DNA of 35,422 bases, taken from an uncultured Acidimicrobiia bacterium. GTDB lineage: Bacteria; Actinomycetota; Acidimicrobiia; Spongiisociales; UBA11373. Both the position numbers and the translations under genes were made by a program. Positions 1,091 to 26,502 of this stretch are shown piece after piece (the stretch's first letter is position 1; each line of letters opens with the position of its first letter). The DNA is taken from positions 1 to 35,422 of the forward strand of contig CAYTTU010000246.1 in assembly GCA_964440905.1 (NCBI GenBank), given 5' to 3'. The notes beneath the pieces are model-generated. The model saw nothing but the letters and a program-made list of their open reading frames with translations, ran no database searches and had not been told where the DNA came from.

Positions 1091-1118
1091 CCGTCAGCCG
1101 TCAGCTGTCAGCTGATCG
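1091..1118. repeat. tandem heptamer array: CCGTCAG CCGTCAG CTGTCAG CTGATCG
   Basis: Read directly from the sequence. The array spans the stop codon and last about 7 codons of the BMC-P gene at 1094..1366. Confidence 0.8.
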
Positions 1119-1366
1119 ACTATCCCGACTATCACGGCGCGAATCGGAGCGTCGGCCACACCGACCACCTGGCGAGCCCCGTTGCCCTCGTCGAGGATGA
1201 GCACCATCTCCCCTGCCCCGGCGCCCACCGAGTCCACGCAGATGAGGTAGTCGCCGCCATCCGAACCGTCGGCATCGAGGAGATCGCACATCAGCAGGCG
1301 CCGGCCGTCGTAGATCGGATGGCTGATTGTCGACACCACGGTCCCGGTCACCCGTCCCAGTTTCAC
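1094..1366 (-). CDS. BMC vertex pentamer protein (BMC-P, EutN/CcmL/PduN family), paralogue 3
   Basis: 90 aa. N-terminus MKLGRVTGTVVST plus a GAGxGExV core, both typical of the EutN/CcmL family. 4-nt overlap with the upstream BMC-P gene. Confidence 0.9.
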   Translation of the reverse strand: MKLGRVTGTVVSTISHPIYDGRRLLMCDLLDADGSDGGDYLICVDSVGAGAGEMVLILDEGNGARQVVGVADAPIRAVIVGIVDQLTADG

Positions 1367-1635
1367 GGACGCCGCTCCACCGCGTCCACGATGCCCACGA
1401 TGGCGTGGTCCACGGGCACGAATGGCTCCGGCATCGCCAGTGCTGCCTCCCGGCTGCCCACGACGTACACCAGCTCTCCGGGTCCGGCCATCGCCACTGC
1501 GTCGGCGGCCACCACCGGCCGGCCCTTGGGGCGGCGCTCCCGGTCGAGCGGCTGCACGATGAGGAAACGGACCCCCTCGAGCCCGGGGTATTTCACCGTG
1601 GCGACGACGGTCCCGATCACCTCACCCAGCTGCAT
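1363..1635 (-). CDS. BMC vertex pentamer protein (BMC-P), paralogue 2
   Basis: Internal ATG at 1635 gives 90 aa beginning MQLGEVIGTVVATV. The longer 145-aa ORF has an Arg/Trp-rich, non-protein-like extension that overlaps the upstream gene. Confidence 0.9.
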   Translation of the reverse strand: MQLGEVIGTVVATVKYPGLEGVRFLIVQPLDRERRPKGRPVVAADAVAMAGPGELVYVVGSREAALAMPEPFVPVDHAIVGIVDAVERRP

Positions 1636-2221
1636 CGAATCCCTCCCAACCGACGCGGGTGCCAAAGCGAAATCCGTCGAACAGGTTCCCGCCCATCTCG
1701 GCGTGCAGCTGCGGAATGACCACCGATCCGGCGAGCAGCGCCGGAGGCACCCGTTCCAGACCGATCGCCACCGCCGCCTCCACGTCGGACACGGTGCCAC
1801 AGAACAAGGCGTACGCCTTTCCTCCGAGGCCGTCGGCCAGGTGCAACTCGGCGAGCACCACGGTGGCCCCCTTCACCGCGGCGTCGGCTGCGGCGATGGT
1901 GGCGGCCACCGTCACGGTCTCGATCACTCCGACCGCTTCTCCATCAGGGGGGAACCGTTCACCGCGCACCGCCCCCGCGACCGCGGGATGCACGTCAGGC
2001 AGCAGCACCCGATCGACCAGCGCGGACCCGGACCGGTCGATACCTGCGGCGACCGCCTCTTCGACCGCGGCGACGTCGCCGACGACCATCACCAGGTACT
2101 TGCCGGGGTGGACCGTGCCGCCGAGGATCTCGGCCACCGGCCCCCGCTTGATCATTGCGTCGCCCGCAGCGATGCCGGCCGCGATCGAGGAGAACTCGAG
2201 GATGGCGAGAGCGGGATGCAT
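1622..2221 (-). CDS. tandem-domain BMC shell protein, PduT-like (single-layer BMC-T)
   Basis: ATG at 2221 gives 199 aa beginning MHPALAILEFSSIAAGIAAGDAMIKRG. A second BMC domain begins AVGVIETVTVAATIAAADAAVKG. The protein appears colinear with Salmonella PduT, recalled from memory. The start lies 2 nt after the aldehyde dehydrogenase stop. Confidence 0.85.
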   Translation of the reverse strand: MHPALAILEFSSIAAGIAAGDAMIKRGPVAEILGGTVHPGKYLVMVVGDVAAVEEAVAAGIDRSGSALVDRVLLPDVHPAVAGAVRGERFPPDGEAVGVIETVTVAATIAAADAAVKGATVVLAELHLADGLGGKAYALFCGTVSDVEAAVAIGLERVPPALLAGSVVIPQLHAEMGGNLFDGFRFGTRVGWEGFDAAG

Positions 2222-2222
2222 C

Positions 2223-3674
2223 TCAGACGATCCTGAGGGCGCCGACCACGGCAATACGACGTTCCCGGGTGAAGGTCAGCGGCCGGGTCATGCCGTCGCC
2301 GGAGGGGCTGGCGATGGAAAAGGAGGTGAATCCCTCGCCGCCCTGGCCGAGTCCGGCGTAGTTGGGGCCGTTGGCGATGAAGATCGACACATTGATCGAG
2401 CGCGCCATGCGGGTGATGGTCCCCACGTCGTTGGAGTGGATCGAGGCGGTGTGTCGGAACTGATGCTCGCTGCGAATCGCAAGGTCGATGGCAGCATCGA
2501 CATCGGGTACCACGGTCACCGGCATCACCGGCATCATCTGTTCGGTCCACACCAGGTTGTGGTCGTTGGGCACCACCGCCACCAGAAGACGGGGATCGCC
2601 GTCCACGTCCACCCCGGCGGCGGCGGCGATATCCCGGGCGTTCTTGCCCACCCAGGCCCTATTGATCACACCGGGCTTTCCGGGCGGGCCCATCGTCTCA
2701 AAGATCACTCGCTCCACTTTGCGCAGCTCGTGCTCTTTGAGCACATGGGCGCCATGCCGGGCCATCGCCCTGACCAGTTCGTCGGCCACCGGGCGGACGA
2801 CGATGGTGGTCTTCTCGTCGGTGCAGATCAAGTTGTTGTCGAACGACGCCCCGGCGACGATGTCGCGGGCGGCACGGTCGATGTCGGCGGTCTCATCCAC
2901 CACGGCTGGCGGGTTGCCGGGACCGGCGGTGATCGCCCTCTTGTCGGTCTTGAGCGCCTCGCGTACCACTGCCGGTCCTCCGGTCACCAACAGCACCCGC
3001 ACCTTGGGATGGTGCATCAGCTCCTGGGCGCTCTGGATGGTCGGCTCGGGAACCCCGGTGACGAGATCCGGCGGCCCCCCGGCGGCAAGGATCGCCCGGT
3101 TGAGCAGGCGGATGTTCTCCGCCGATACCCGCCGCGCCCCGGGGTGGGCATTGAACACCACCGCATTGCCGCCGCTGAGAATGGCGATGGTGTTGTTGAT
3201 GAGCGTGGCGGTGGGGTTGGTGGTGGGGGTTATCGACCCGATCACCCCGAACGGAGCGTGCTCGGTGAGCATCATGCCGCCGTCACCGGTTTCGATCAGG
3301 GGTTCGAGATCTTCTGGCCCCGGAGTGCGCGTGGCCACCAGGATGTTCTTGCGAACCTTGTCCTCGGGGCGGCCCAGGCCGGTCTCCTCGTGGGCCATCT
3401 TTGCCAGGTGCTCGGCGGAGGCGAGCATGGCGTTGCGGATCGAGGCCACGACCGCCCCCCGGATCCCGGTGCCGAGGGCGGTATAGCGGTCGTAGGCACG
3501 TTCGGCGGCGTCGACGGCCTCATTGACGGTGGCATACATCCCCTCCCCCAGGGAGGCCTCCGGCACCTCGACCGGCACCCGGGGATGGGCCGGGGCGGCG
3601 TCGGCGGTGCCGCCAAGGCGCGCTCGCACCCGGGCGATGATCTCCTGGACCTCGCGCTCCGAGGGCGTCTTCAT
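2223..3674 (-). CDS. CoA-acylating aldehyde dehydrogenase (PduP/EutE-like) with N-terminal encapsulation-peptide-like helix
   Basis: 483 aa. Core resembles the EutE/PduP family ([45 protein letters not shown]). The N-terminal segment [16 protein letters not shown] is followed by a Pro/Ala-rich linker. Confidence 0.9.
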
Positions 3675-3675
3675 C

Positions 3676-3963
3676 TCACTTCACGTACTTCACGTCGCCG
3701 CCGACCTCCCAGGTATCGACGATGGCCATCACCACCGCGTCGCACGGCCGGTCACGGGTGGACTCGGTCTGGCGGGCCGAAGAACCGGTGGCATACATCA
3801 CGACTTCCCCGACCCCGGCCCCTACCGCGTCTGCGGCGACCACATAGGCCGAGGTGTCCGACTCATCGACATCGATCTGCCGGACGACGAGGAACTTGAG
3901 TCCCTCGAGGGTCGGCTCCTTGCGCGACGCCACCAGGGTCCCGACGACACGGCCGAGGAGCAC
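3676..3963 (-). CDS. BMC vertex pentamer protein (BMC-P), paralogue 1
   Basis: 95 aa beginning [15 protein letters not shown], with an [13 protein letters not shown] core. EutN/CcmL family. Confidence 0.9.
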
Positions 3964-3978
3964 TCGTCCGCTCCCGGG

Positions 3979-4281
3979 TCAGGCCGACTCGGCCGCGGCC
4001 TCGTCGGCGCGACCGAGGGGCAGGACCAGGTCGATGTTGACGTGGGGACGGGCGATGACGTGCGTCGACACCACTTCGCCGACCTTCTCGGCGCCGCGAA
4101 TGCCGGCATCGATGGCGGCCTTCACCGCGGCGACGTCACCGCGAACGATCGCGGTTACGTAGCCGCCGCCGGTCTTCTCGTATGAGACGAGCTCCACCTT
4201 GGCGGCCTTCACCATCGCATCCGCTGCCTCCACCATCGCCGCGAACCCGCGGCACTCGATCATTCCCAGTGCTTCAGCCAT
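3979..4281 (-). CDS. BMC hexamer shell protein (BMC-H, PduA/EutM-like)
   Basis: 100 aa: [32 protein letters not shown]...[19 protein letters not shown]. This is a canonical single BMC domain. Confidence 0.92.
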
Positions 4282-4329
4282 TGGTCTCCGCTCTCCCTTT
4301 CTGGTGTCCTTGCGGCGGGGCCGCCCCCG

Positions 4330-4956
4330 TCACGAAATGTCTCTGCCGGCCAGTCCCTCAAGGGCGGCGACGGCGGCGCGCCAGCCGACGTCGATGTCGC
4401 GCTCCTCGCCCCCGAGATAGACCCGCCCCAGCGATCCGAAGGATCGCACCTCGAGAACGTTTATGTTGGCCGCCTTCTCCGCCTCGTTGGCCGCCAGAGC
4501 GGCGTAACACGCCGGCTCCATCTCCAGCAGGTACAGCGTCTGGCCGGGGATGATCATCTGGCCGTGGCGCATCCGGTTGATCAACTGCGCCTGGTGGTCG
4601 TCGATGCGCCGGATGATCTGGCTCGAGGCGATGCGGGGCTTGAAGCGGTCCGTCTCGGTGGCTCCGATTTCGGCGAGGATCGCTGCCCCCGCCGCCCGGG
4701 TCTCCGCCTGCGAGGGCGAGTGGACCTCGAGCAGACCGAAGTAGCGCTCGACTATCTGCATGCCCGGCTTCACCGTGGTGGCCTTGAGGGCGACATCGGT
4801 GAGCCGGTTGATCTCGATACCCGGGGAGATCTCGACGTAGAGCGAGGCATCTCCGGCGAGTGGCAGGAAGCCCTGGGCCACCGTGCCGAGGAATGCGGCG
4901 TACTGCGGTTGGAGGCTGTCGAGGAACGAGTAGCCCCGAAGATCAATACCTGCCAC
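4330..4956 (-). CDS. tandem permuted BMC shell protein (BMC-T, CsoS1D/CcmP/HO-T2-like double-stacking type)
   Basis: 208 aa with a GTG start at 4956 preceded by GGGAGG. It contains [20 protein letters not shown]...[32 protein letters not shown] and [15 protein letters not shown]. These resemble the Haliangium BMC-T2/T3 and CsoS1D class, recalled from memory. Confidence 0.8.
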
Positions 4957-5800
4957 TCGAAGTACCTCCCGTCACGATCTGGACCCCGGCTGAAGCCCCG
5001 ATACGGGTGGCCCCGGCCGCGATCATCTGTTTGGCGTCCTCGACACTACGGATTCCCCCGGAGGCCTTCACCCCGATCTTCGGGCCGACTGCCTCCCGCA
5101 TCAACGCCACGTCGTACACCGTGGCCCCTCCCGGGCCGAACCCGGTGGAGGTCTTCACGAAGTCCGCCTTGGCCTCGACCGCGATCTGGGAAGCGATCAC
5201 CTTCTCCTCGTCACTCAGCAGCGCGGTCTCGAGAATCACCTTGCACAATGCCCCCGCTTCGCGGCACGCCTCGCTGACCCCGGCGATGTCTTGACGGACC
5301 GTGTCGAAGAGCCCGGACTTGAGGGCTCCAACGTTGATCACCATGTCGATCTCCCGGGCTCCGTCCCGTAGGGCGCGCCGGGCCTCCATCGCCTTGATCT
5401 CAGGGGTGGACGCCCCGAGGGGGAATCCGACGACACAGCATGCCACCACCGGCGTGCCCTTGAGGGCCTCGGCGACCCGCTTCGCCCAGGTGGGGTTCAC
5501 GCACACCGACGCAAACCCGTACTCGATCGCCTCGGAGCACATTCGGTCGATCTCCGCGGCGGTGGCTTCGGGTTTGAGCATGGTGTGATCGATGAACCCG
5601 GCGAGATCCGTGGGCACATCGGCGCCGGCCCCGTTGTAGGTGACCCGGGTCGCCCCGGCGGCGAGCACCGACCGCACCTTGGGGGCCGAGTGGGCGACGC
5701 AGTCCCCAAGGCAGGTGAGGCACTCGTCCCAGGCTTCACCAGCGAGGGAGGCCAGGACCTCCCGGGTGATCGCTTCGATGAGGTCGTCGCGCTCGGTCAT
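4943..5800 (-). CDS. deoC: deoxyribose-phosphate aldolase (DERA) with N-terminal extension
   Basis: ATG at 5800 overlaps the rpiB stop (ATGA) and gives 285 aa. The DERA core includes [34 protein letters not shown] and DFVKTSTGF. About 70 extra N-terminal residues include the helix [17 protein letters not shown] and a CX2CX3C motif. Confidence 0.9.
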
Positions 5801-6363
5801 GCCGACACCTGGAGCCGAGGTCCGTCCAGGGCGTCGATCTTGGCGACCCGCCGAGCGTGGCGTCCCTCGCCCCACGGGGTCTCCAGCCAGGCGGTGACGA
5901 TCTCCCAGGCCAGGTTCTCCCCGATCAACCCCGCACCCAGGGTCAGGACGTTGGCGTGGTTGTGCTCCCGGGAATTGCGCGCCGACGAGACGTCGTAGCA
6001 CAGGGCCGCCCGGACTCCGACCACCTTGTTGGCCGCCATCGCCGAGCCGATCCCGGCGCCGTCGACCACGATCCCGGCAATGCAGGCGCCACTGGCCACC
6101 TGCAGGGCCACCGCGACCGCAAAGTCCGGGTAGTCGACGGGGTCTGCCGAGTCGGTCCCGCAATCGACTACAGCGTGCCCTGCCTCGCGCAACCGGAATG
6201 CGAGCCGTTCCTTGAGGCGGTAACCGCCATGATCTGCACCAATGGCGATGGCCCCCGAAGGTGCCGCCACCGGGGTCACCAGGGGTGGCGCCTGCGGGGA
6301 GGGACTGGCGACCGCATCGACGACCCGGGCGACGAGTTGGCGCACCTCGGTCTCGCTGGGCAT
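5797..6363 (-). CDS. rpiB: ribose-5-phosphate isomerase B (RpiB/LacAB family) with N-terminal extension
   Basis: ATG at 6363 gives 188 aa. The core includes [37 protein letters not shown] and [15 protein letters not shown]. The N-terminal segment [18 protein letters not shown] is followed by a Pro-rich linker. Confidence 0.9.
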
Positions 6364-6384
6364 GTCTCGGCGCACCACCAGGCG

Positions 6385-6390
6385 ATTATC
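6385..6390 (-). promoter_or_regulatory. candidate -10 element (GATAAT on minus strand) for the BMC operon
   Basis: This is the only A/T-rich hexamer between the rpiB ATG (6363) and the heptamer arrays, and lies 22 nt upstream of the ATG. No convincing -35 element was seen. The -35 region would fall inside the first TCGGGCG units. Confidence 0.25.
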
Positions 6391-6404
6391 CCACGGCGGA
6401 CCGT

Positions 6405-6581
6405 CGCCCGACGCCCGATGCCCGATACCCGACTCCCGACGCCCGACGCCCGACGCCCGAGCCAGACCCAGAACCCGAGCCAGAACCCGAACCCGCGCCA
6501 GAACACGGGGCATTCGGGATCGGGTATCGGGAGTCGGAAGTCGGGAGTCGGGGTTCGGACTCGCCCCTCGCCCCTCGCCCC
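6405..6581. repeat. inverted heptamer arrays: 8 x NNCCCGA (6405-6460), CCAGAACCCGA-type spacer, about 7 x TCGGGNN (6513-6559), then 3 x TCGCCCC (6561-6581)
   Basis: Read directly from the sequence. The left and right arms are imperfect reverse complements with a 5/7 invariant core per unit. The minus strand of the left arm reads (GGGN4)8. Confidence 0.85.
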
Positions 6582-6587
6582 TAGATT
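6582..6587 (+). promoter_or_regulatory. candidate -10 element (TAGATT) for a leaderless HTH-gene transcript
   Basis: A TANNNT hexamer lies 7 nt upstream of the in-frame GTG at 6595, with no Shine-Dalgarno sequence between them. This pattern is typical of leaderless actinobacterial mRNAs. Confidence 0.3.
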
Positions 6588-6594
6588 TCGCCCC

Positions 6595-7173
6595 GTGGAC
6601 CCCGCCTTCACCTGGGACCAACCCAAGCCCAAGACTCCTCGGGCGCCACGCGACCCCGCCGCCGCGGCCCTCCCCCCAACCGGAGAGCGCATCACCTTGC
6701 GCGAGGCGGAGCATCGCTTCGGAGTGCCTGTGGCCACACTGCGCACCTGGGCCCGCAAAGGTGCGGTCGATGCCGTGATGACCGCCGACCAGGGTCAGCG
6801 GCAGTGGGTGGTGACCCCCGAGTCGGTGGCCCACCATCTCTCCCGGGCCGCCAAGACTGTGCCGCGACCCGGTCGAAAAGCTGCCACGAAAGGCAAGCCG
6901 ACGGGGCGGCGGGCCACCGGGCCCACCGGCGACGGGACTGCGATGCTGGTGCCCCGCGACGCCTGGGACCGCCTGATCGACCAGTTGGGGAACCTGCACG
7001 AAACGGGGCTGATGCTCGCCGAGGCACGGGAGCGCGCCGCCCGGGCCGAAACCGAGGCGGGCTTTCTGCGCGAGCGGCTCGCTGAGATCCGGACGGAGCG
7101 CGATGGGCTGCGGGCCGGCACCAGCGATGTCCCGCCAACACCGCGACGGTGGCGGAGGCTCTTCGGACGATGA
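6595..7173 (+). CDS. HTH (excisionase/MerR-like, HTH_17-type) DNA-binding protein with C-terminal coiled coil
   Basis: Only the last part of the 438-aa ORF looks protein-like. ITLREAEHRFGVPVATLRTWARKGAVDA is a helix-turn-helix segment. The C-terminal part ARERAARAETEAGFLRERLAEIRTERDGL is coiled-coil-like. The GTG at 6595 is the first plausible start, so the start is uncertain. Confidence 0.6.
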   Translation: MDPAFTWDQPKPKTPRAPRDPAAAALPPTGERITLREAEHRFGVPVATLRTWARKGAVDAVMTADQGQRQWVVTPESVAHHLSRAAKTVPRPGRKAATKGKPTGRRATGPTGDGTAMLVPRDAWDRLIDQLGNLHETGLMLAEARERAARAETEAGFLRERLAEIRTERDGLRAGTSDVPPTPRRWRRLFGR

Positions 7174-7216
7174 GTCCCGTAACGGTGGCGGAACGCAACC
7201 TGCCTAGGTTGGGACC

Positions 7217-9928: not shown

Positions 9929-10677
9929 GGGCCTTCGTCGCCGTAACCAAACTGACCCTGCGCCAGCTCCTCGGTGGGAAGCGCCTGCTAGGACTCGGGC
10001 TGCTCGCTCTGGTTCCGACGGTGATCATGTGGCTGGCCTCGGCGAACCTGACCGGAGGCGCGGTGGTCAACCGGTTCCACGATGCTCCACTCGGCGTCGT
10101 CTTCCTCATCGTGGTGCCGGTCGTGTCCCTGATCCTGGGTTCGGCTCCGCTCGGCGACGACCGGCGCGACGGCACGCTGTCATTTCTGATGCTCCGCCCC
10201 CTGCCGCGCTCTCTGATAGTCGCCGCCAAGCTGTTCGCGGCGTGGCTGGCGTCGACCCTGGTGGTGGGCACGGCGGGCGCCCTTTCGGCATCGGTGGTGG
10301 GTCTGCGGGTGGGCGACTGGTCGTACGTAATCCCCACGATCGCGGCGATCGCCATCGCCTGTCTGGGCTACACCTCCGTCTTCCTGCTCCTCGGCTACTT
10401 CACCGCCCGTGCAGTGCTCATCGGTCTGGTCTACGTCTTCATCTGGGAAAACGGCATCTCGCTGGCCGCCGCCTCGCTCGCCAACGTCTCGCTGCTGCGC
10501 GTCGGACTCAGCGCCTACGTGGGCATGGTTCCCGAGGCGGAGAACTACGGACTCGACCGCGAGATCCTCGGGGCCGTCGCCCCCGGTGCAGGTGGCGCCG
10601 CCGCCAAGGCCCTGGTCGTCGCGGTGATCGTGGTCCTGTATGCGGCGCGGATGCTGCGGCGGCGCGACCTCACCTGA
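9925..10677 (+). CDS. ABC-2 type transporter permease (second permease)
   Basis: ATG at 9925 overlaps the upstream stop (ATGA). 250 aa and multi-pass hydrophobic. Confidence 0.75.
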   Translation: MRAFVAVTKLTLRQLLGGKRLLGLGLLALVPTVIMWLASANLTGGAVVNRFHDAPLGVVFLIVVPVVSLILGSAPLGDDRRDGTLSFLMLRPLPRSLIVAAKLFAAWLASTLVVGTAGALSASVVGLRVGDWSYVIPTIAAIAIACLGYTSVFLLLGYFTARAVLIGLVYVFIWENGISLAAASLANVSLLRVGLSAYVGMVPEAENYGLDREILGAVAPGAGGAAAKALVVAVIVVLYAARMLRRRDLT

Positions 10678-10680
10678 GAG

Positions 10681-10708
10681 ATCTCAGATCTCAGGTGTCA
10701 GATCTCAG
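10681..10708. repeat. tandem heptamer array: ATCTCAG ATCTCAG GTGTCAG ATCTCAG
   Basis: Read directly from the sequence. The array begins 4 nt after the permease stop codon. Confidence 0.85.
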
Positions 10709-10792: not shown

Positions 10793-11413
10793 ATGGACCT
10801 GGAGTTTCTCAAGGAGATGGGCGAGTCGCTCAAGGGGACCAACATCGACTCGGTGGAGGAGTTCGAGCAGGCGCTCGTCGATCGCGTGAAATACCTGCGG
10901 CTCTCGGTGTCCGATCTCGACATCCAATACGACAAGGGCGTCGCCACCGTGATGGGCATGGTTCCGGATCAGGCGACCAAGGAGAAGATCATCCTCGCCG
11001 TCGGAAACGTCAAGGGTGTGGCCAAGGTGAAGGACAGCCTGGCCGTCGGCCTCACCGCCTCCCAGAAGGCCGAGTTGCGCAAGCGAGCCGCGGTTCGGGC
11101 CGGCTCCAAGTCGGCGGCGGCCGCTGCCGCCGCCGCCAAGGCCGCCGAAAAGGCCCGTAAGGAGGCCAAGGCCAAGTTCGAGCTCGAGGTGCGCCGCGCC
11201 GCCTTCAAGAAGGAACTGTCCGCCCGGGCCAAGGACGGGGCCAAGGCCTCGGTCACCTACACCGTGAAGAAGGGCGACAGCCTCAGCAAGATCGCCAAGA
11301 AGCTCTACGGCGACTCCTCGAAGTGGAAGGCGATCTTCGAGGCCAACCAGCCGCTCATCAAGAAGGCCGACCTGATCTACCCCGGCCAGGTGCTGCGGAT
11401 TCCGAAGATCTAG
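10793..11413 (+). CDS. BON-domain plus LysM-domain protein (Kbp/YgaU-like) with Ala/Lys-rich linker
   Basis: ATG at 10793 is preceded by AGGAGAAGGAG. 206 aa. The BON-like part contains GVATVMGMVPDQATKEKIILAVGNVKGVAKVKDSL. The C-terminal LysM domain contains YTVKKGDSLSKIAKKLYGDSSKWKAIFEANQPLIKKADLIYPGQVLRIP. Confidence 0.85.
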   Translation: MDLEFLKEMGESLKGTNIDSVEEFEQALVDRVKYLRLSVSDLDIQYDKGVATVMGMVPDQATKEKIILAVGNVKGVAKVKDSLAVGLTASQKAELRKRAAVRAGSKSAAAAAAAAKAAEKARKEAKAKFELEVRRAAFKKELSARAKDGAKASVTYTVKKGDSLSKIAKKLYGDSSKWKAIFEANQPLIKKADLIYPGQVLRIPKI

Positions 11414-11434
11414 ATCTCAGGTCTCAGATCTCAG
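11407..11434. repeat. tandem heptamer array: GATCTAG ATCTCAG GTCTCAG ATCTCAG
   Basis: Read directly from the sequence. The first unit contains the TAG stop of the BON-LysM gene. The unit is the same as in the array at 10681-10708. Confidence 0.85.
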
Positions 11435-11440
11435 CGAATC

Positions 11441-11470
11441 GGTTGCGGAGGGCTCGGGCCCTCCGCAACC
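11441..11470 (+). terminator. perfect 13-bp GC-rich hairpin (GGTTGCGGAGGGC-TCGG-GCCCTCCGCAACC)
   Basis: Perfect stem read directly from the sequence. It sits between the BON-LysM stop and the murJ start. There is no clear U-tract, which is common in high-GC actinobacteria. It is nested between inverted heptamer arrays. Confidence 0.5.
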
Positions 11471-11490
11471 TCGTCGAGGCTCTTGAAAGA

Positions 11491-11525
11491 CCTGAGATCT
11501 GACATCTGACATCTGAGATCGAAGA
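11491..11525. repeat. tandem heptamer array: CCTGAGA TCTGACA TCTGACA TCTGAGA TCGAAGA (inverted relative to 11407-11434)
   Basis: Read directly from the sequence. It is the reverse complement of the (A/G)TCTCAG unit. Confidence 0.85.
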
Positions 11526-11556
11526 CCAGCCTTCGAGCCGGGTACCGTTCTCCGGC

Positions 11557-13098: not shown

Positions 13099-13112
13099 AC
13101 CGAGACGCGAGA

Positions 13113-14011: not shown

Positions 14012-15153
14012 GGGCCCGGGTGGCGTCCCCGTGGCGTCGGCTACCCTCCCCGACCGTGATCCGACGCCTCGCATTCCTCGTGAGTCTGTCCCTGGTGGCT
14101 GCGGCGTGTGGTGGGGACGCCGCCCCCACCACCACGACGACCGCCACCACCACGACGACCACCAGCACCACCACGACGTCGACGACCACGACGACCGTCG
14201 CCGTCACCACCACGACAGTCGCCACCGGACCGACGGTCACCACGCTGCCCGAGGGTTTCCGCTCTCCCATCAATGGCCTCCACCCCGAGTTGGAAACGCT
14301 GCTCGATCGCCGGGGAATCGCGGTCAAGGTGGACAATCACCCCGAGGCGCGCCCCCAGTCGGGAATCCAGCACGCCGACGGGATGATCGAGCTCCTGGTC
14401 GAAGGCGGATTCACCCGGTTCATCGCCCTTTTCCACGACAACGACACCGACTACATCGGGCCGATCCGTTCCGTCCGCCCCACCGACTCGACGCTCATCC
14501 CCTGGCTGGACGTTCCTTTCGCCTATTCGGGTGGGCAGCCCTGGGTGCGCGACCTCTTCGCCAGCCGGTCGATCCGCCTGATCGGTGAAGGGGCCAACGG
14601 GATGTTCCGCATCTCCAGCCGGACGGCTCCACAGAACCTCTACGGCGACACCAACGCTTTTCGCACCGTGTCGGATCAGCGCGGCTATCACAACGACCCA
14701 CCGAACTGGCTTTACGAGGTCGGGCTTTGGGACTTCCCCGAGGAACCCGCCACCGAGATCACAATCCAGTGGTCCTCCAACTCCTTGGTGCGGTGGGTGT
14801 ACGAGGATGGGAAGTACCTGCGGTTCAACGGCAGTTCCCCTCACCGGTGGCGGGCAGAGGACAGATCCGAGGGCCAGGTGTCCGCAGATGTCCTCGTCAC
14901 CCTCACCGGGCACGCCTATACCGCCAGGCCGCCCTCCGGAGTGAGCGGAACCCCGGTGCCTGCCACGGAGACGGTCGGATCGGGCAAGGCGCGCGTGTTC
15001 GCCTACGGACTGGTCTGGGAGGGAACCTGGGAGCGCGGCGGGATCAACGAGCCCTTCCGTCTGTTCTCCGCCGATGGCTCCGTCGCCGTGGTTCCACCGG
15101 GCGTCCCCTGGGTCTCGATCCTCCCCGACATCGCCACCCTCACCTACGAGTGA
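14008..15153 (+). CDS. DUF3048 (YerB-like) lipoprotein with poly-Thr linker
   Basis: GTG at 14008 overlaps the sodX stop (GTGA). An alternative GTG at 14056 gives VIRRLAFLVSLSLVAAAC, a signal peptide with lipobox. AVKVDNHPEARPQSGIQHADGMIELLVEGGFTRFIALF matches my recollection of DUF3048. Confidence 0.75.
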   Translation: MRARVASPWRRLPSPTVIRRLAFLVSLSLVAAACGGDAAPTTTTTATTTTTTSTTTTSTTTTTVAVTTTTVATGPTVTTLPEGFRSPINGLHPELETLLDRRGIAVKVDNHPEARPQSGIQHADGMIELLVEGGFTRFIALFHDNDTDYIGPIRSVRPTDSTLIPWLDVPFAYSGGQPWVRDLFASRSIRLIGEGANGMFRISSRTAPQNLYGDTNAFRTVSDQRGYHNDPPNWLYEVGLWDFPEEPATEITIQWSSNSLVRWVYEDGKYLRFNGSSPHRWRAEDRSEGQVSADVLVTLTGHAYTARPPSGVSGTPVPATETVGSGKARVFAYGLVWEGTWERGGINEPFRLFSADGSVAVVPPGVPWVSILPDIATLTYE

Positions 15154-16514: not shown

Positions 16515-16539
16515 ACCGCTGCGGCGGGACCCGTACAAT
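16512..16539 (+). promoter_or_regulatory. candidate promoter for korAB (TGAACC-16 nt-TACAAT)
   Basis: Hexamers read directly from the sequence, about 90 nt upstream of the korA GTG. An AAGGAG Shine-Dalgarno lies at 16614-16619. Confidence 0.3.
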
Positions 16540-16628
16540 GCGAGACGTTCGTCTCCGAACCCAGGGTCCCCGGGACTCCGAGCGGCGGCGATCGATTCTC
16601 ATTCAAAGCCCGCAAGGAGTGATGGAGC

Positions 16629-18491: not shown

Positions 18492-19534
18492 CCACAGAAG
18501 CCCGCTACACCCGCGCCGACTTCCAGACGGACCAGGAGGTTCGGTGGTGCCCCGGGTGCGGCGATTACACGATCCTCGCCTCGGTGCAGAGTTTCATGGC
18601 CGAGATGGGGGTGGACAAGGAGAAGATCGTCTTCGTGTCGGGGATCGGGTGTGCCTCGCGGTTCCCCTACTACATGAATACCTATGGGCTTCACGCCATC
18701 CACGGCCGCGCCCCCGCAATCGCCTCGGGGCTGGCGGTGGCTCGCCCCGAGCTGTCGGTGTGGGTGGTCGCCGGCGACGGCGACGCCATGTCCATCGGCG
18801 GAAACCATCTGATCCACGCGCTGCGCCGCAACATCAATCTCAAGATCCTGGTGTTCAACAACCAGATCTATGGCCTCACCAAGGGCCAGTACTCCCCCAC
18901 CTCCGAAGTGGGAAAGCGCACCAAGTCGAGTCCCTTGGGCTCGATCGACTTTCCGTTCAACCCGGTGAGCCTGGCACTAGGAGCAGAGGCGACCTTCGTT
19001 GCCCGCACCGTGGACATGGACCGGGCGCACACCACCGAGATCCTCAAGCAGGCCCATGCCCACCGCGGTACCGCTTTCGTGGAGATCTATCAGAACTGCA
19101 ACGTGTTCAACGACAAGGCGTTCATCGCACTCACCGGCAAGGAGGTGCGGGACCACAACCGCATCAATCTGGTCCACGGCGAAAAGGTCCTGTTCGGGCC
19201 GGAGCGGGAGCGCGGGGTCATCATCGAGGGTGGGACGGCCCGCATCGTCGACGTCGCCGAGGTTGGGCTCGATGCCATCCACACCCACGATGCCACCGCC
19301 GCCAGCGCCGGTCCGGCGTACGCCCTGAGCCGCCTCAGTCACGGCCCGGTCGGCCCCACCCCGGTCGGAGTGTTCCGTTCCGTCGATCGCCCGGTGTACG
19401 AGGAGACCCTGCAGCAGCAGATCCACGATGCCCAGGCCAAGCGCGGCCCTGGCGACCTCGCTGCCCTGATCGCCTCCGCCGGCACCTGGACGGTCGAGGC
19501 CGGTGGCGAGCCCGAGCTGCCCAGTCATAGCTAG
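18488..19534 (+). CDS. korB: 2-oxoglutarate/2-oxoacid:ferredoxin oxidoreductase, beta subunit
   Basis: ATG at 18488 overlaps the korA stop (ATGA). 348 aa with WCPGCGDY and the TPP-binding segment GDGDAMSIGGNHLIHALRRN. Confidence 0.9.
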   Translation: MTTEARYTRADFQTDQEVRWCPGCGDYTILASVQSFMAEMGVDKEKIVFVSGIGCASRFPYYMNTYGLHAIHGRAPAIASGLAVARPELSVWVVAGDGDAMSIGGNHLIHALRRNINLKILVFNNQIYGLTKGQYSPTSEVGKRTKSSPLGSIDFPFNPVSLALGAEATFVARTVDMDRAHTTEILKQAHAHRGTAFVEIYQNCNVFNDKAFIALTGKEVRDHNRINLVHGEKVLFGPERERGVIIEGGTARIVDVAEVGLDAIHTHDATAASAGPAYALSRLSHGPVGPTPVGVFRSVDRPVYEETLQQQIHDAQAKRGPGDLAALIASAGTWTVEAGGEPELPSHS

Positions 19535-19564
19535 GAAGCTGACAGCTGACAGCTAGAGACTGAG
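19529..19564. repeat. tandem heptamer array: AGCTAGG(A) AGCTGAC AGCTGAC AGCTAGA GACTGAG
   Basis: Read directly from the sequence. The first unit contains the korB TAG stop. Confidence 0.8.
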
Positions 19565-19570
19565 ACCGCC

Positions 19571-19720
19571 ATGGCCCACGTTCGTCACCTCAAGTACGAC
19601 GGCACCCTGAGCTGGCACTTCAGCATGAGGTGCTTCGGTGGGGACAACCGCCGCGGCGACCTCGGGGTCTCGTATCTGGAGCGAGCCCTCACCCTCCCTG
19701 CCCGGGCGCGGCGGCGCTGA
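19571..19720 (+). CDS. small ORF (49 aa), possible gene fragment
   Basis: ATG at 19571. Translates to MAHVRHLKYDGTLSWHFSMRCFGGDNRRGDLGVSYLERALTLPARARRR. Its stop overlaps the next ATG (TGATG). It is below the ORF-track size cut-off, and coding status is unproven. Confidence 0.25.
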   Translation: MAHVRHLKYDGTLSWHFSMRCFGGDNRRGDLGVSYLERALTLPARARRR

Positions 19721-20397
19721 TGTTCGCCGTCTCGGTGGCCACCAGTGTGCTCGCCGCATTGTTCGCCACCGATCTGCTGCGGCGCTGGGTGCGGCGCCGC
19801 GAGCGGCGCCACCTGCTGTGGTGGGGGGCCGGTGTGGTCGCCTACGGGTTGGGGACGCTGGCGGCGGCCGTCGTCGAGCGGTCCGGGTGGACCCCGGGCT
19901 GGTTCCGCACCTGGTACGTCGCCGGGGCGATCCTGGGTGGGGCGCTGCTCGCCACCGGAACGGCGCACCTGCTGCATCGTCCTGCAACGGCGAGCCGTAT
20001 CGGGCAGTCGGTGATCGTTCTCGCCGTCGGAGCCACCGCGGCCCTCGCCCTCGCTCCGATCGCCCCGCTGCCCTCGGGTGATCTCGCCGGGGACTCGATC
20101 GCCTGGGGATGGGTGCGCGCCTTTACTCCGGTGCTCAACACCTATGCCGTGGTGTACCTGGTGGGCGGTGCGGTGCGATCGGCAATGCGCCACACCGACC
20201 GCCGCCGAGTCGCCGGAAACGTGTTGATCGCCCTGGGCGGCCTCACCCCCGCCTTCGGAGGTGTGGCCTCCCGCCTCGGTGGTGCCGATGCCTTGCCCCC
20301 CACCCTGCTGGCCGGGCTGGTGCTGATCTGGACGGGAGCGGTGCTGGCGGGCGGGCAGAAGGTACGAACGCAGGAGGATCGGGGCTCGGGGCTATGA
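19720..20397 (+). CDS. hypothetical multi-pass membrane protein
   Basis: Internal ATG at 19720 gives 225 aa beginning MFAVSVATSVLAALFATDLL, with about 6 hydrophobic helices. No family recognised. Confidence 0.6.
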   Translation: MFAVSVATSVLAALFATDLLRRWVRRRERRHLLWWGAGVVAYGLGTLAAAVVERSGWTPGWFRTWYVAGAILGGALLATGTAHLLHRPATASRIGQSVIVLAVGATAALALAPIAPLPSGDLAGDSIAWGWVRAFTPVLNTYAVVYLVGGAVRSAMRHTDRRRVAGNVLIALGGLTPAFGGVASRLGGADALPPTLLAGLVLIWTGAVLAGGQKVRTQEDRGSGL

Positions 20398-20418
20398 ACG
20401 ATGAGCGACGAGCGATGA
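20391..20418. repeat. tandem heptamer array: GCTATGA ACGATGA GCGACGA GCGATGA
   Basis: Read directly from the sequence. The first unit contains the TGA stop of the membrane protein gene. Confidence 0.8.
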
Positions 20419-20439
20419 GACCGGAGAGCTGGATCGGCT

Positions 20440-20467
20440 TCGCCCATCGCCCATCGCCCATCGCCGC
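20440..20467. repeat. tandem heptamer array: 3 x TCGCCCA + TCGCCGC
   Basis: Read directly from the sequence. Confidence 0.85.
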
Positions 20468-20475
20468 ACCCTCAA

Positions 20476-20517
20476 GGCCAATAGCCAATAGCCAATAGCC
20501 AATAGCCAATAGCGGAG
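20476..20517. repeat. tandem heptamer array: GGCCAAT + 4 x AGCCAAT + AGCGGAG
   Basis: Read directly from the sequence. It ends 20 nt before the convergent methyltransferase stop. Confidence 0.9.
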
Positions 20518-20536
20518 GCCACCGCAGGCGGCCGAC

Positions 20537-21361: not shown

Positions 21362-21470
21362 GGAAGGAATGGTAAGGGGTGATCGAATCGCCTCGCCCCG
21401 GGATCTGGCACCTATTCGCTCATCCCTAGAGGGTGGGAAACCCCTGCCCGCCGGAGGGCGTCCAACAGGT

Positions 21471-21968: not shown

Positions 21969-21983
21969 GAGCATCGCGCCGGC

Positions 21984-22814: not shown

Positions 22815-22867
22815 GGCGGGAAACTCTACCGGGATGGACGGTCCTCCCCTCCTACGCTCTCCGCCAA

Positions 22868-23878: not shown

Positions 23879-23982
23879 GGTTCCCGGGGTGGGACGCCGA
23901 TGTCTCACAAAATGGGGCACCCGCTACGGTGCCTCCCCGTAGATAGATCCGTGACACCGAACCGCGCGGAGGGCCGAAGACC

Positions 23983-25089
23983 ATGCGCACGATGACACGA
24001 AGCCTGATTTCCGTCACGACGCTCTTCGCCGCCCTCACCGTGGCGATACCGGTGTCACAGGCCAACCACCAGGCTCCCTTTGATGGTCCCGAACATGAGT
24101 ACGGGGAGAAGGTGGACTATCCGCTCACCTTCCCGGTGGTCGGACAAAACCGCTACACCGCAGGGTTCTGGTCGAATCGCGGCGGCGGGTATCACCACGC
24201 CACCGACATCATGGCCTCCAAGATGACCCCGGTGGTGGCAGTCGCCAGCGGGACGATCAGCTACATCGGGAGCCGGTGCTGCAGTCTGCAGATCAGACAC
24301 GAAGACGGCTGGACCTCCAAGTACATCCACCTCAACAACGACACCCCGGGAACCGACGACGGTCAGGGTTGGGGCATTGCCCCCGGCCTCACCGTGGGCA
24401 CCCGGGTGATCGCCGGACAGCTGATCGGCTGGGTCGGCGACAGTGGCAACGCCGAGGGCACCTCCCCCCACCTCCACTTCGAACTCATGGACAAGGACAA
24501 GGTGCTGGTCGACGCCTATGAGGCACTGCGCTCCGCCCAGACCGGCGCCCCGGTGGCACTGTGCCGGCCCCCCGCCTCGGGAGCGATCGACACCCTCCTC
24601 GGCACCACCAGCCTCATCAAGCGTGACTCCCGGGGCCAGGCGGTGGTGGAACTACAGCGATTCCTCAGCGCCATCGGGTACGACACCGGGAGCATCGACG
24701 GTGTGGTGGGCAACTACACACTCGGCGCCATCCGGGCCTTCCAGGAGGGCCGGGGACTCGACCCCGATGGAGTGGTCGGCGCCACCACCCGCACCCATAT
24801 CGGACAGGTGTATCGCATCATGCCAGCGATGCCGGTGCTCGACGACAGCAATCGCATCATCCGGCCCGGATATCGCGGCGAGGACGTCAAGAACATCCAG
24901 AAGCTGCTTGCAGTGGCCGGGTACGACCCCGGGCCTGCCGACGGCGTCTACGGACCGAAGACCCAGACAGCGGTCTCGACCTTCCAGAAGACGTTCGGCG
25001 GGTTGGTGGTCGACGGCAAGGTTGGACCCAGCACCCGCGACGCACTTGCCGCCTTCCTCGGCCTTGGCGCGTTTGAGGCGTGCGGCTGA
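23983..25089 (+). CDS. secreted M23 metallopeptidase with two C-terminal peptidoglycan-binding (PG_binding_1) repeats
   Basis: 368 aa with a signal peptide. M23 motifs are YHHATDI and GNAEGTSPHLHFEL. Two repeats of the VxxLQxxLxxxGYDxGxxDGxxGxxTxxAxxxFQ type are present. Confidence 0.85.
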   Translation: MRTMTRSLISVTTLFAALTVAIPVSQANHQAPFDGPEHEYGEKVDYPLTFPVVGQNRYTAGFWSNRGGGYHHATDIMASKMTPVVAVASGTISYIGSRCCSLQIRHEDGWTSKYIHLNNDTPGTDDGQGWGIAPGLTVGTRVIAGQLIGWVGDSGNAEGTSPHLHFELMDKDKVLVDAYEALRSAQTGAPVALCRPPASGAIDTLLGTTSLIKRDSRGQAVVELQRFLSAIGYDTGSIDGVVGNYTLGAIRAFQEGRGLDPDGVVGATTRTHIGQVYRIMPAMPVLDDSNRIIRPGYRGEDVKNIQKLLAVAGYDPGPADGVYGPKTQTAVSTFQKTFGGLVVDGKVGPSTRDALAAFLGLGAFEACG

Positions 25090-25553
25090 TCCGGGTTCGC
25101 CTTCTAGCTGCGGCCATCGCAGTGCTGGTGACCGCCACGGCTTGTGGCGACGATGCCGATGGTGTAGCCCGCTACGTGGCGGCAACGGCGGCGATCACCG
25201 AGCAGATGACCCGGGACGTCTTCGCCACCCTTCCCCCCGGCGCGGCCCCCACCCGCGATCAGGTCGCCGCAGTCGTGGCAGTGCGGCGCGCTGCATTCGA
25301 GTCGGTTGGCGCCCTCGACCCTCCCGAGGAGATGGCCCCGGAGCACCAGGCACTGCTCACGGCCATGGGAAGGTTCGTCACCGCCGGGGAGGAGTTCCTG
25401 GCCGGCTCGGCCGGGCTCGACGCCGCCGGTTTCCTCGCCGCCCTCGAAGCGACCACCCACATCGACGCCATCGCCGATGACGTGTCGGCGGCGTGCACCG
25501 CGTGGGAGACCCGGGCTGCCAACCTGGGGAACCCCGTGGAGTTGGGGTGCTGA
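25080..25553 (+). CDS. hypothetical lipoprotein
   Basis: GTG at 25080 overlaps the end of the M23 gene. AAAIAVLVTATAC is a signal peptide with lipobox. 157 aa. Confidence 0.6.
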   Translation: MRLIRVRLLAAAIAVLVTATACGDDADGVARYVAATAAITEQMTRDVFATLPPGAAPTRDQVAAVVAVRRAAFESVGALDPPEEMAPEHQALLTAMGRFVTAGEEFLAGSAGLDAAGFLAALEATTHIDAIADDVSAACTAWETRAANLGNPVELGC

Positions 25554-25554
25554 G

Positions 25555-25582
25555 CTGGGCACTAAGCACTAGGCACTAGGCG
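25555..25582. repeat. tandem heptamer array: CTGGGCA CTAAGCA CTAGGCA CTAGGCG
   Basis: Read directly from the sequence. It starts 2 nt after the lipoprotein stop. Confidence 0.85.
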
Positions 25583-25595
25583 GTATCGTGGCGAA

Positions 25596-26036
25596 ATGGT
25601 CGAGCTCGATGCTGGGTCTGATGCCGATCTCCCCGCTATCCGCGAACTGCTCGACGAGTCCAGCCTTCCGCTCGATGGCTTGATGGCGGTCCCGACGCGG
25701 TGGGTCGTGGCCCGAGATCGAGGCCGCTTGGTCGGCGCCGGGGCGCTCGAGGCCCATGGGAATCACTCACTGCTCCGTTCGCTGGTGGTGGCACCCGACG
25801 TCAGGACGCTTGGAGTCGGATCGGGGATAGTCGGCGAGCTGGAGCGCATCGCCGCGGATCGTGGTTCGGGTGGCATCTACTTGCTCACCGACACGGCGGA
25901 AGGTTTCTTCAAGCGTCGCGGCTACGTGCGGATCGACCGCGATGCGGCACCGGATGCGGTTCGACGGTCGGAGGAGTGGGCGGTGACGTGCTCTGCTTCG
26001 GCGACTCCGATGGTGCGGGCCGACCAGGTCATCTAG
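25596..26036 (+). CDS. GNAT-family N-acetyltransferase (ArsN2/ArgA-like short form)
   Basis: 146 aa. LLRSLVVAPDVRTLGVGSGIV...IYLLTDTAEGFFKRRGY is an acetyl-CoA-binding GNAT core. The C-terminal CSASATPM resembles ArsN2-type proteins. Confidence 0.78.
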   Translation: MVELDAGSDADLPAIRELLDESSLPLDGLMAVPTRWVVARDRGRLVGAGALEAHGNHSLLRSLVVAPDVRTLGVGSGIVGELERIAADRGSGGIYLLTDTAEGFFKRRGYVRIDRDAAPDAVRRSEEWAVTCSASATPMVRADQVI

Positions 26037-26461
26037 AACCCCCGGGCGAACTGCTCCACCCTGCGTGGGAGGCCCTGCTCGATCGATGCCGAGATGCGGC
26101 TCCAGAACATCCCGGCGAGGAAACCCCGCGGCTTGGCTTCGAGACTCACGTCGATGACAGTTCCGCCCGGATCGGGTCGCATCCCCACGGTAAGAGTGCC
26201 CTCGATCTCTGACGACTTCAGCCCGAGTGCGAGGGTGGCGCCCGGTCGGGACTCGACGACCCGGGCGGTTCCGCGATGCCGGCTCCCTCCGACGGCTGCG
26301 GTCCAGTCGAAACCGATCAGGCGATCACCGTGGCTCTGCTCATTGGAGACCGTGTCCATGACCCCGAGGCCAAGCCATGTCTCAGCCCTCTGCAAGCGCA
26401 CCCAAACGGTCATCGGATCAGCAGCGGTCAGGGCGGAGTGGCGAAACGCTGCGGGGGCCAT
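26033..26461 (-). CDS. SRPBCC-superfamily (START/polyketide cyclase-like) protein
   Basis: 142 aa. The size and beta-rich pattern, with a C-terminal helix, are typical of SRPBCC. It is convergent with the GNAT gene and overlaps it by 4 nt. Confidence 0.65.
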   Translation of the reverse strand: MAPAAFRHSALTAADPMTVWVRLQRAETWLGLGVMDTVSNEQSHGDRLIGFDWTAAVGGSRHRGTARVVESRPGATLALGLKSSEIEGTLTVGMRPDPGGTVIDVSLEAKPRGFLAGMFWSRISASIEQGLPRRVEQFARGF

Positions 26462-26467
26462 GCCGGA

Positions 26468-26502
26468 AACCTAGTGCCAAGTGCCTAGTGCTTAGTGCCT
26501 AC
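26468..26502. repeat. tandem heptamer array: AACCTAG TGCCAAG TGCCTAG TGCTTAG TGCCTAC (inverted relative to 25555-25582)
   Basis: Read directly from the sequence. Positions 26482-26499 are the exact reverse complement of 25558-25575 (18 nt). The last unit contains the atpC stop. Confidence 0.85.

Follow-up and report, generated by a model that had tools for sequence, protein, structure and literature searches.

Tandem heptanucleotide arrays behind stop codons in an uncultured acidimicrobial lineage: a known repeat class with foldback pairing, copying between spacers and turnover at orthologous sites

What are the short head-to-tail arrays of a 7-nt unit that occupy many intergenic spacers of an uncultured acidimicrobial bacterium, and why do they lie behind stop codons? 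The question was addressed on contig CAYTTU010000246.1 (assembly GCA_964440905.1), positions 1 to 35,422, the whole of which is referred to here as the window (35.4 kb, 68% GC). The arrays belong to the known class of intergenic heptanucleotide repeats that includes the cyanobacterial STRR and the GGGAATC repeats of Xanthomonas, and they are new in uncultured Acidimicrobiia, where it is unusually clear that arrays are organised as foldbacks, copied from spacer to spacer and turned over at orthologous sites. With moderate confidence, we regard them as lineage-specific repeat elements that arise by slippage, homogenisation and copying in permissive spacers and that probably act as RNA hairpins at gene ends.

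Tandem Repeats Finder (TRF) called 14 period-7 arrays in the window (2.1-8.6 copies, matches of 82-100%), at coordinates that agree to within a few bases with those of a preliminary description made from the letters of the sequence. Exact runs of at least 2.5 copies numbered six at period 7, compared to 0.0 expected from Markov-1 shuffles, and 0-2 at each of the remaining periods from 2 to 15; the excess was confined to period 7. Genes were mapped from Pfam hits and a codon log-odds model trained on these hits, a model that loses accuracy on distant and metagenome loci. The map comprises a bacterial microcompartment (BMC) locus that looks like the sugar-phosphate-utilising type, an ABC transporter, BON-LysM, MurJ, Ni-SOD, an amidase, korAB, the atp operon and SHMT. 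Arrays were present in 8 of the 16 spacers of at least 29 nt, as expected from the earlier estimate of about half. The arrays and the features associated with them are given below.

1090-1112, minus strand: (GCTGACN) x3.3 (TRF), overlapping the 16 final coding nt of the BMC-P/EutN gene 1094-1366(-) together with its TGA stop (1094-1096); in one family with the array at 19537.
6401-6460, no strand assigned: (CCCGACG) x8.6 (TRF, fold), left arm of a large foldback, which lies in the divergent spacer separating RpiB(-) from a probable HTH gene(+).
6461-6513, no strand assigned: CCCGA/CCAGA-rich loop at the centre of the foldback, TRF period 6/12/18.
6514-6559, no strand assigned: (TCGGGAN) about x6, right arm, complementary to 6401-6460 and fitting the Xanthomonas-type GGGANTC; the TRF call is 6514-6552.
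6560-6582, no strand assigned: (CTCGCCC) x3.3 (TRF, exact-run test), an exact array adjoining the foldback.
10679-10708, plus strand: (AGATCTC) x4.3, beginning 1 nt past the TGA stop of the second ABC permease (10675-10677); CAG in the sense strand every 7 nt.
11406-11434, plus strand: (AGATCTC) x4.3, including the BON-LysM TAG stop (11411-11413); it has the variant unit of 10679-10708, of which it is a copy, and is the 5' arm of a foldback.
11441-11470, plus strand: 13-bp GC-rich hairpin GGTTGCGGAGGGC/GCCCTCCGCAACC between the 11406 and 11492 arrays, with no T-tract after it.
11492-11520, plus strand: (TCTGACA/TCTGAGA) x4.1, 3' arm of the foldback, almost the reverse complement of 11406-11434; the MurJ start lies 36 nt downstream.
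19537-19554, plus strand: (AGCTGAC) x2.6, beginning 2 nt past the korB TAG stop (19532-19534).
20379-20393, plus strand: (TCGGGGC) x2.1, within the last codons of the gene at 19720-20397.
20394-20419, plus strand: (ATGAGCG) x3.7, including the TGA stop at 20395-20397.
20440-20465, no strand assigned: (TCGCCCA) x3.7, exact, in a convergent spacer; its unit is complementary to ATGAGCG at 6/7 positions.
20477-20513, no strand assigned: (GCCAATA) x5.3, exact, ending 23 nt short of the stop of the convergent methyltransferase gene (20537-).
25558-25581, plus strand: (GGCACTA) x3.4, beginning 4 nt past the TGA stop of the gene at 25080-25553; left boundary of an inverted segment.
25582-26469, no strand assigned: GNAT and SRPBCC gene pair, inverted relative to seven relatives and bounded exactly by two inverted GGCACTA arrays.
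26470-26501, minus strand: (GGCACTA) x4.6 in the sense of atpC, including the atpC TAG stop (26499-26501); a copy of 25558-25581, with two units fewer in strain L081.

The preliminary description had placed most arrays at stop codons and had assigned each spacer a unit of its own. All seven stops that it named were verified: those of EutN, BON-LysM, the 19720 protein and atpC lie inside an array, and those of the permease, korB and the 25080 protein precede one by 1, 2 and 4 nt, respectively. The cluster at 6401-6582, however, sits between two gene starts. The claim of separate units was only partly true, in that AGATCTC (10679 and 11406, inverse at 11492), AGCTGAC (1090 and 19537) and GGCACTA (25558 and 26470) each recur at more than one site. 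The arrays are not an assembly artefact, because comparable arrays were found in at least ten independently assembled relatives and two arrays of the window were identical in the Logan contigs of another sample. The species of the window was detected in one other sample only, as short contigs, and exact-protein look-ups for korB and the 25080 protein returned no match. A CRISPR array was rejected, as the units are 7 nt long and contiguous and not 24-48 nt repeats with unique spacers. A scan of the window at Rfam gathering thresholds gave 0 hits and hence no known RNA family.

A scan based on KorA, with one genome per species, yielded 80 loci, all from Acidimicrobiia metagenome-assembled genomes, the closest KorA being 90% identical; the collection scanned hence lacks the genome of the window itself. 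The window and 13 loci with KorA identity of at least 73% were designated the near clade (233 kb), and the other 67 loci the distant set (1,016 kb). The near clade contained 67 period-7 arrays, or 28.8 per 100 kb, which were present in 11 of the 13 near relatives. The distant set contained 34, or 3.3 per 100 kb, a density not above that of periods 8, 10 or 11 and amounting to essentially none across the 67 loci. The densities of every other period were equal in the two sets. The scan of relatives that the preliminary description had proposed therefore found period 7 alone in excess, and in this clade only. Self-identity at lag 7 in intergenic DNA was 0.361 in the near clade and 0.277 in the distant set, with a baseline of ~0.27; masking of the called arrays lowered the near-clade value to 0.298, which indicates little decayed heptamer debris. 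The array-bearing lineage consists of uncultured Acidimicrobiia of soil and groundwater. No intergenic array was found in 21 kb of CP129495.1, a closed 2.2-Mb genome with SHMT 80% identical, and the trait is thus patchy. Together with L206, this genome (L205) is fairly close, has the same synteny and compact spacers, lacks heptamer arrays and serves as a natural negative control.

A scan of metagenomes with (GACGGGC)n returned at least 120 stretches, and the 80 contigs among the matches listed (457 kb, 54-74% GC; the listed metagenome contigs below) carried at least 92 further heptamer arrays with other units, or 20 per 100 kb. Array-rich genomes with many units are thus common among environmental high-GC bacteria. 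These contigs (L084-L163) include very dense or long arrays (e.g. L117, L126, L156 and L157), with up to ~20 copies and with 7-9 arrays in 2-11 kb, and their sense strand after stops is G-rich, the opposite of the near clade.

The arrays avoid genes and favour gene ends. In the near clade 58 of 67 arrays (~87%) were intergenic, although 93% of the DNA is coding, and array density per kb was 4.2 in stop-start spacers, 5.1 in stop-stop spacers and 1.0 in start-start spacers. The array began within 3 nt of a stop codon in 31% of cases, compared to 8% by random placement, and no attraction to start codons was seen in the near clade. On the listed metagenome contigs 149 of 169 arrays were intergenic and 26% were stop-adjacent, compared to 6% expected. 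The enrichment at gene 3' ends that had been proposed for testing was therefore present in both sets. Spacers downstream of stops had a median length of 117 nt with arrays and 15 nt without; the arrays make up the bulk of the spacer and fill it up to the ribosome-binding site (RBS) of the next gene, which explains much of the stop adjacency. Variable-length spacers that are hot for arrays follow korB, the 25080 protein, atpD, the second permease and PrmC, and the convergent spacer between the 19720 and methyltransferase genes is another, whereas other spacers of ~100-200 nt, among them those upstream of korA and M23, never held an array in 8-13 genomes. TAG stops were commoner beside arrays (13/31 vs 48/213). 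Slippage-prone contingency tracts were among the roles suggested earlier; a phase-variation locus was rejected, as the arrays lie after stops or between cistrons and none lies between promoter hexamers.

Turnover of the arrays was evident on several scales. A Logan contig from SRR10083321 (L081) differed from the window over 1.5 kb by three single-nucleotide polymorphisms and one 14-bp deletion that takes out precisely two units of the atpC array. The anticipated copy-number variation among strains was thus borne out by a change in whole units. Collapse during assembly was rejected as the source of the difference, given that the window sequence lacks the junction k-mers of the shorter allele. 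The arrays at 1090 and 25558 were the same in the window and the other sample, the former even though it overlaps a gene end, and about ten arrays were the same in two other strain pairs at least 99.9% identical. Between species the units themselves were exchanged. After the stop of the orthologous 25080 protein, L001 has TGA-GGA-(AGCGGTC)3, L003 has (AGCCACC)4 and L004 has (AGTCACC)2; units are uniform within an array and different between species, which is concerted evolution. At PrmC-Sua5, L204 and L210 carry wholly different units although the flanks are ~94% identical, and at atpD-atpC of the same pair only the right arm is conserved, the left being scrambled. Empty and filled orthologous sites exist, with flanks too diverged to define boundaries.

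Copies were also found within genomes. Same-unit arrays of one genome have variant units and even linkers in common, as in the window, where 10679 resembles 11406, 25558 resembles the reverse complement of 26470, and 1090 resembles 19537. In L005, 83 nt of array-linker-array are common to two sites 6.5 kb apart, and in L003, ~111 nt of foldback are common to two sites 16 kb apart. Gene order changes at arrays as well. The GNAT-SRPBCC pair (25582-26469) is inverted in the window and L081 relative to L001, L003, L004, L005, L009, L207 and L208, and the breakpoints coincide with the inverted GGCACTA arrays. BON-LysM (10793-11413) is present in the window, where it is flanked by direct AGATCTC arrays, and in L003 and L004, and is absent between the permease and MurJ in L005, L008, L009, L010 and L011.

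Three further length or sequence differences were recorded in the relatives. Between atpG and atpD, L204 (16686-16953) carries ~2.7 tandem copies of a 100-nt unit, compared to 11 nt in L210, with which it is 94% identical; the copy number of this unit is uncertain, as the long-read assembly of L204 is noisy and its gene calls are fragmented. L001 has ~90 extra nt (16523-16614) within the atpD region compared to the 99.9%-identical L208, a contig from another sample; the two BLAST segments have a 7-nt overlap, and the extra stretch reflects a duplication or else a misassembly. L209 (11332-11398) and L208 (from 11349 onward) are 99.97% identical over 11.3 kb and then diverge totally inside (CCCGTCG)n, beyond which L209 runs into a different array (CTGCGAC), reflecting either a rearrangement or an assembly join at the repeat.

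Spacers often hold two arrays with near reverse-complementary units. A partner complementary at 6/7 positions or more was found for 14 of 41 arrays in multi-array spacers, compared to 1.6% under the null, an arrangement of terminal inverted repeats. About half of the arrays had no inverted partner, and palindromic units, considered as an explanation for lone arrays, were not enriched (8/57 vs null 12.6%). The atpD-atpC junction measures 10 nt in the window, 21 nt in L004 and 78-143 nt in L001, L002, L003, L005 and L009. The long form runs from the stop through a left array (~4 x 7), a loop and a right array to the RBS and ATG; in L008 the right arm is degenerate. The complementary cores of the two arms differ by species (CCAGT/ACTGG, CCCGT/ACGGG, CAGTC/GACTG, GCAGA/TCTGC and CCCGC/GCGGG), and the same species-specific complementary pairing was found in five further comparisons at the PrmC-Sua5 spacer.

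Predicted folds of the sense RNA separated the two kinds of spacer. Paired-array spacers gave z of -3 to -9 relative to dinucleotide shuffles, and spacers with direct arrays only were predicted to be unstructured (z ~0 to +2). In the window, 6395-6590 was predicted to fold at -93.8 kcal/mol (z -3.4) and 11400-11530 at -65.5 kcal/mol (z -5.65), the arrays of the latter forming an outer stem around the 13-bp GC hairpin. The predicted foldback hairpins of the window have no T-tract. No canonical terminator, that is, a GC-rich hairpin with a T/U tract, was found in array spacers, and the 6 found in 20 kb compare to 5.5 expected. A role as terminator or insulator, one of those first suggested, is plausible for the inverted pairs, given folds much more stable than those of shuffles, but finds no counterpart in canonical terminators.

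The units are diverse. About 40 different units occur among 66 near-clade arrays, with no consensus in common beyond short head and tail motifs: around arrays of different units, the head GAAG was present in 8/30 and the tail C[AC]AGA in 10/30, compared to a null of ~3%, an approximately ten-fold excess for motifs that were set post hoc. Arrays have 2-10 units, mostly 3-4, with a plateau at 2-4 and one array at 5 units. In the near clade, CAG was phased every 7 nt in the sense strand of 17 of 30 stop-adjacent arrays and in the antisense strand of 2 (sign test p = 6e-5; null 13%), a count that takes in orthologues and copies and hence non-independent arrays. The CAG-phased arrays represent 13 distinct units with consensus CAG-[ACT]-[TC]-N-N, next to genes on both DNA strands. 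Most of the other stop-adjacent arrays are CCCG(N3), and in other units of the window the phased triplet is UAG or GAG. Avoidance of start codons or Shine-Dalgarno motifs was rejected as the cause of the CAG orientation, as only 4/17 antisense units would carry such motifs. At PrmC-Sua5 the first array was of the CAG type in only 1/5, and the 5' arm was G-rich.

These observations can be assembled into a mechanism. Short arrays occupy that part of an intergenic spacer which is dispensable, and genes exclude them, since 7 is not divisible by 3. Judging from the spacer medians, they come to abut stops chiefly by filling the spacer as far as the protected RBS or promoter of the next gene. Slipped-strand mispairing adds and removes whole units, as shown by the 14-bp strain difference, and concerted evolution of the kind seen after the 25080 stop keeps arrays uniform inside while species diverge. 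Copying or replacement between spacers may proceed by gene conversion or by a transposition-like process. Inverted pairs with complementary 5-nt unit cores are predicted to fold the spacer into a long interrupted hairpin, and transcribed foldbacks would then most probably act as 3'-end or intercistronic RNA hairpins, either as terminators lacking a U-tract or as REP-like elements of mRNA stability. The repeats would also serve as substrates for rearrangement, as at the inversion bounded by inverted arrays. For period 7, the published proposal is a polymerase property that favours 7-nt slippage; the patchy, clade-limited distribution fits either such a property or a clade-specific enzyme.

Several results weigh against this mechanism. 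In strain comparisons at 99.9% identity or more, ~11 of 13 arrays were unchanged, which indicates that instability is raised but not extreme. The sense bias of CAG is not predicted by neutral slippage and hints at sequence-specific recognition. About half of the arrays are unpaired and predicted to be unstructured, so no single function fits all. The depletion from divergent spacers was not reproduced on the listed metagenome contigs. No target-site duplication was evident at arrays at orthologous sites, where the flanks are diverged, and no transposase gene was present among the ~330 kb of clade DNA examined.

Some of the same observations would suit small non-autonomous mobile elements, similar to miniature inverted-repeat transposable elements, REPINs or foldback elements, whose heptamer arms are moved by a dedicated clade-specific transposase or recombinase, with slippage secondary. 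Whole elements with non-repetitive linkers recur far apart and in the same orientation to transcription (the 83 nt of L005 and ~111 nt of L003), orthologous sites show presence and absence, units are completely replaced at ~6% divergence, arrays of different units share the GAAG head and C[AC]AGA tail, and the relative CP129495.1 is array-free. We nevertheless consider mobile elements unlikely: the families have no terminal consensus, no target-site duplication was evident beside the diverged flanks, the ~330 kb of clade DNA examined contained no transposase gene, many arrays lack arms and consist of one direct run, the head and tail motifs were chosen only after inspection of the data, and gene conversion at short homologies is equally able to copy. 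The phased triplets point elsewhere, to transcript platforms for an oligomeric RNA-binding regulator that would read one NAG, mostly CAG, per 7 nt and control termination or stability. HutP reads three XAG triplets spaced 7 nt per face, at two sites that flank a GC-rich terminator stem (PMC2425495), and 11406-11520 has a similar layout, with triplets at 7-nt spacing and free spacer bases around a GC hairpin; this is a geometric analogy and no claim of membership. Such a regulator would account for the strand bias of CAG across 13 units with four nearly free positions on both DNA strands, the UAG- and GAG-phased units of the window, the enrichment of TAG stops, and the mode of 3-4 units with its sharp fall at 5. 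It would not account for PrmC-Sua5 or for the listed metagenome contigs, which have no CAG bias, and a third of the stop-adjacent arrays are of the CCCG type without AG. The arrays counted are also non-independent, and no candidate protein is known in the clade; HutP and TRAP are Firmicute proteins that each act at one operon leader, whereas the arrays here lie at many gene ends. A HutP-like regulator is therefore, in our estimation, improbable.

Formation of G-quadruplexes or i-motifs, the mode of action suggested for the GGGAATC repeats of Xanthomonas and the GGGGA(T/C)T repeats of Nostoc, could apply to 6514-6559 (GGGANTC) and its partner 6401-6460, each with at least four G3 tracts and 4-nt loops on one strand, and to the listed metagenome contigs, where GGG in the sense strand after stops (10 vs 0) gives a Xanthomonas-like polarity. 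As a general explanation it is very improbable, since a G3 or C3 tract with ~4 copies or more is confined to 13 of the 66 near-clade arrays, most units, among them AGATCTC, AGCTGAC, GGCACTA, GCCAATA and CTGAAGA, cannot form a quadruplex, and the sense strand in the near clade tends to be C-rich. Hardly credible as a general function are frame-independent translation stops, which the preliminary description had put forward, or C-rich unstructured tracts that load Rho just past stop codons. A sense stop triplet is present in 4/6 stop-adjacent arrays of the window, but the stop-rich units there belong to a small number of families duplicated locally. In the clade as a whole, 6/30 stop-adjacent arrays have a sense stop (null 15%) and 11/30 an antisense stop, so that the suggested enrichment of stop-containing units is not seen on the sense strand. 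For Rho, direct-only arrays are predicted to be unstructured and the first array in co-directional clade spacers has C>G in 16 vs 6 (p = 0.05, borderline), yet this polarity is reversed on the listed metagenome contigs (13 vs 19) and at PrmC-Sua5. A bolder reading, in which the arrays would be cis-elements of a clade-specific system, either a global HutP-like triplet-reading regulator or a new foldback mobile element with heptamer arms, is quite unlikely; if true, that system would be a mechanism for the bacterial preference for period 7.

The slippage-and-copying reading places the arrays beside repeats that are already known. The GGGAATC repeats of Xanthomonas and the GGGGA(T/C)T repeats of Nostoc are intergenic, rare between divergent open reading frames (ORFs), and lie within 50 nt of a stop or overlap it; they have a modal ~4 units and form 70-75 inverted pairs per genome, capable of stem-loops, and their sites are kept between related species while length and sequence vary (Rehm et al. 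2015, PMC4692102). The arrays described here are similar in their intergenic, stop-adjacent location, inverted pairs and turnover at orthologous sites, and, for Xanthomonas, in the GC-rich genome. They differ in that Xanthomonas has one dominant G-tract family, read as G-quadruplex-forming, whereas dozens of unrelated units, mostly incapable of this structure, occur here; in that the sense strand after stops tends to be C-rich or CAG-phased in the near clade and is G-rich in Xanthomonas; and in that composite elements are demonstrably copied between spacers here, unlike in the description of Xanthomonas and Nostoc. No paper joining Acidimicrobiia with heptamer repeats was found in the literature. 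The supposed novelty in GC-rich bacteria accordingly holds for Acidimicrobiia, for which we found no report, but not for the anatomy, which has been published for Xanthomonas (PMC4692102).

Many bacteria are reported to have an excess of heptanucleotide simple sequence repeats in their intergenic DNA, for which slippage of the polymerase is the proposed origin (Mrazek 2007, as cited in PMC4692102). As far as that survey is quoted there, its repeats are like the present ones in being specific to period 7, intergenic and limited to certain lineages; plain slippage does not cover the dispersal of copies, the inverted pairing or the concerted evolution at orthologous sites seen here. To our knowledge, Acidimicrobiia were not part of that survey. 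Heptanucleotide repeats of Calothrix are cited in the same source (PMC4692102). The resemblance to STRR proposed in the preliminary description was upheld: the arrays are head-to-tail 7-nt units, period-7-specific, non-coding, lineage-restricted and polymorphic in unit number, and in both cases several tandem heptamer families are dispersed in the non-coding DNA of one lineage. Cyanobacterial STRR heptamers occur in Calothrix and Anabaena, for example, and the STRR1-3 units are CCCCAGT (STRR1), TTGGTCA and CAACAGT. The array AGTCCCC of L045, which we take to be a rotation of the STRR1 unit, is the sole match among ~66 arrays, and membership in the STRR1-3 sequence families was rejected, as only this array coincides and its host is one of the Acidimicrobiia. 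Phylum and GC content are different, unit families are far more numerous, and foldbacks and stop adjacency are prominent.

Dispersed hairpins after stops or between cistrons are also known as REP, BIME and REPIN in proteobacteria and as TRIT in Mycobacterium tuberculosis, with a presumed role in the stabilisation or termination of transcripts. Each genome has a single conserved REP or TRIT sequence, which is not made of tandem 7-nt units, and REPs depend on the RAYT transposase. The present arrays are like them in forming hairpins after stops, often as inverted pairs, with presence and absence between relatives. Membership in REP/REPIN was rejected, as there are ~40 units among 66 arrays in place of a single consensus, and no RAYT (Y1 transposase) was seen in the clade loci examined. 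The TAACTGA direct repeats of Beggiatoaceae are abundant, intergenic, lineage-limited, present in 2-6 copies per set and suspected of a post-transcriptional role (PMC4679880). Those have a single unit, lie just upstream of starts and include one indirect repeat only, whereas the arrays here have many units, follow stops and form many inverted pairs.

Heptamer over-representation has been known from some bacterial genomes since 1990 and 2007. For the questions of why the period is 7 and what the arrays do, the clade provides a clean comparative system, with array-rich genomes beside the array-free closed CP129495.1, conserved synteny, and spacers that can be traced from genome to genome; foldback complementarity kept through sequence replacement, a strand-specific phased triplet and array-tied rearrangements add to its value. 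A contrast of gene content between array-rich and array-free relatives could reveal a polymerase, repair or binding factor. The arrays are also assembly breakpoints and could serve as strain-typing markers for uncultured Actinomycetota.

Other parts of the window were recorded in passing. The BMC locus occupies 1094-6378 on the minus strand and encodes three EutN/BMC-P proteins, three BMC-domain proteins, an aldehyde dehydrogenase, a DeoC-family aldolase and RpiB. Directly downstream of the large foldback, an unannotated ORF at 6601-7170 (+) has a sub-threshold HTH_17/MerR match (E ~1e-3) and is probably a small regulator divergent from the BMC locus. Coding repeats of period 18 (also 3 and 15) occur at 14126-14223, in the N-terminal part of a DUF3048 protein, and a coding repeat of period 12 (x3.7) at 35251-35294 in the last ORF; these are ordinary in-frame low complexity, separate from the heptamers.

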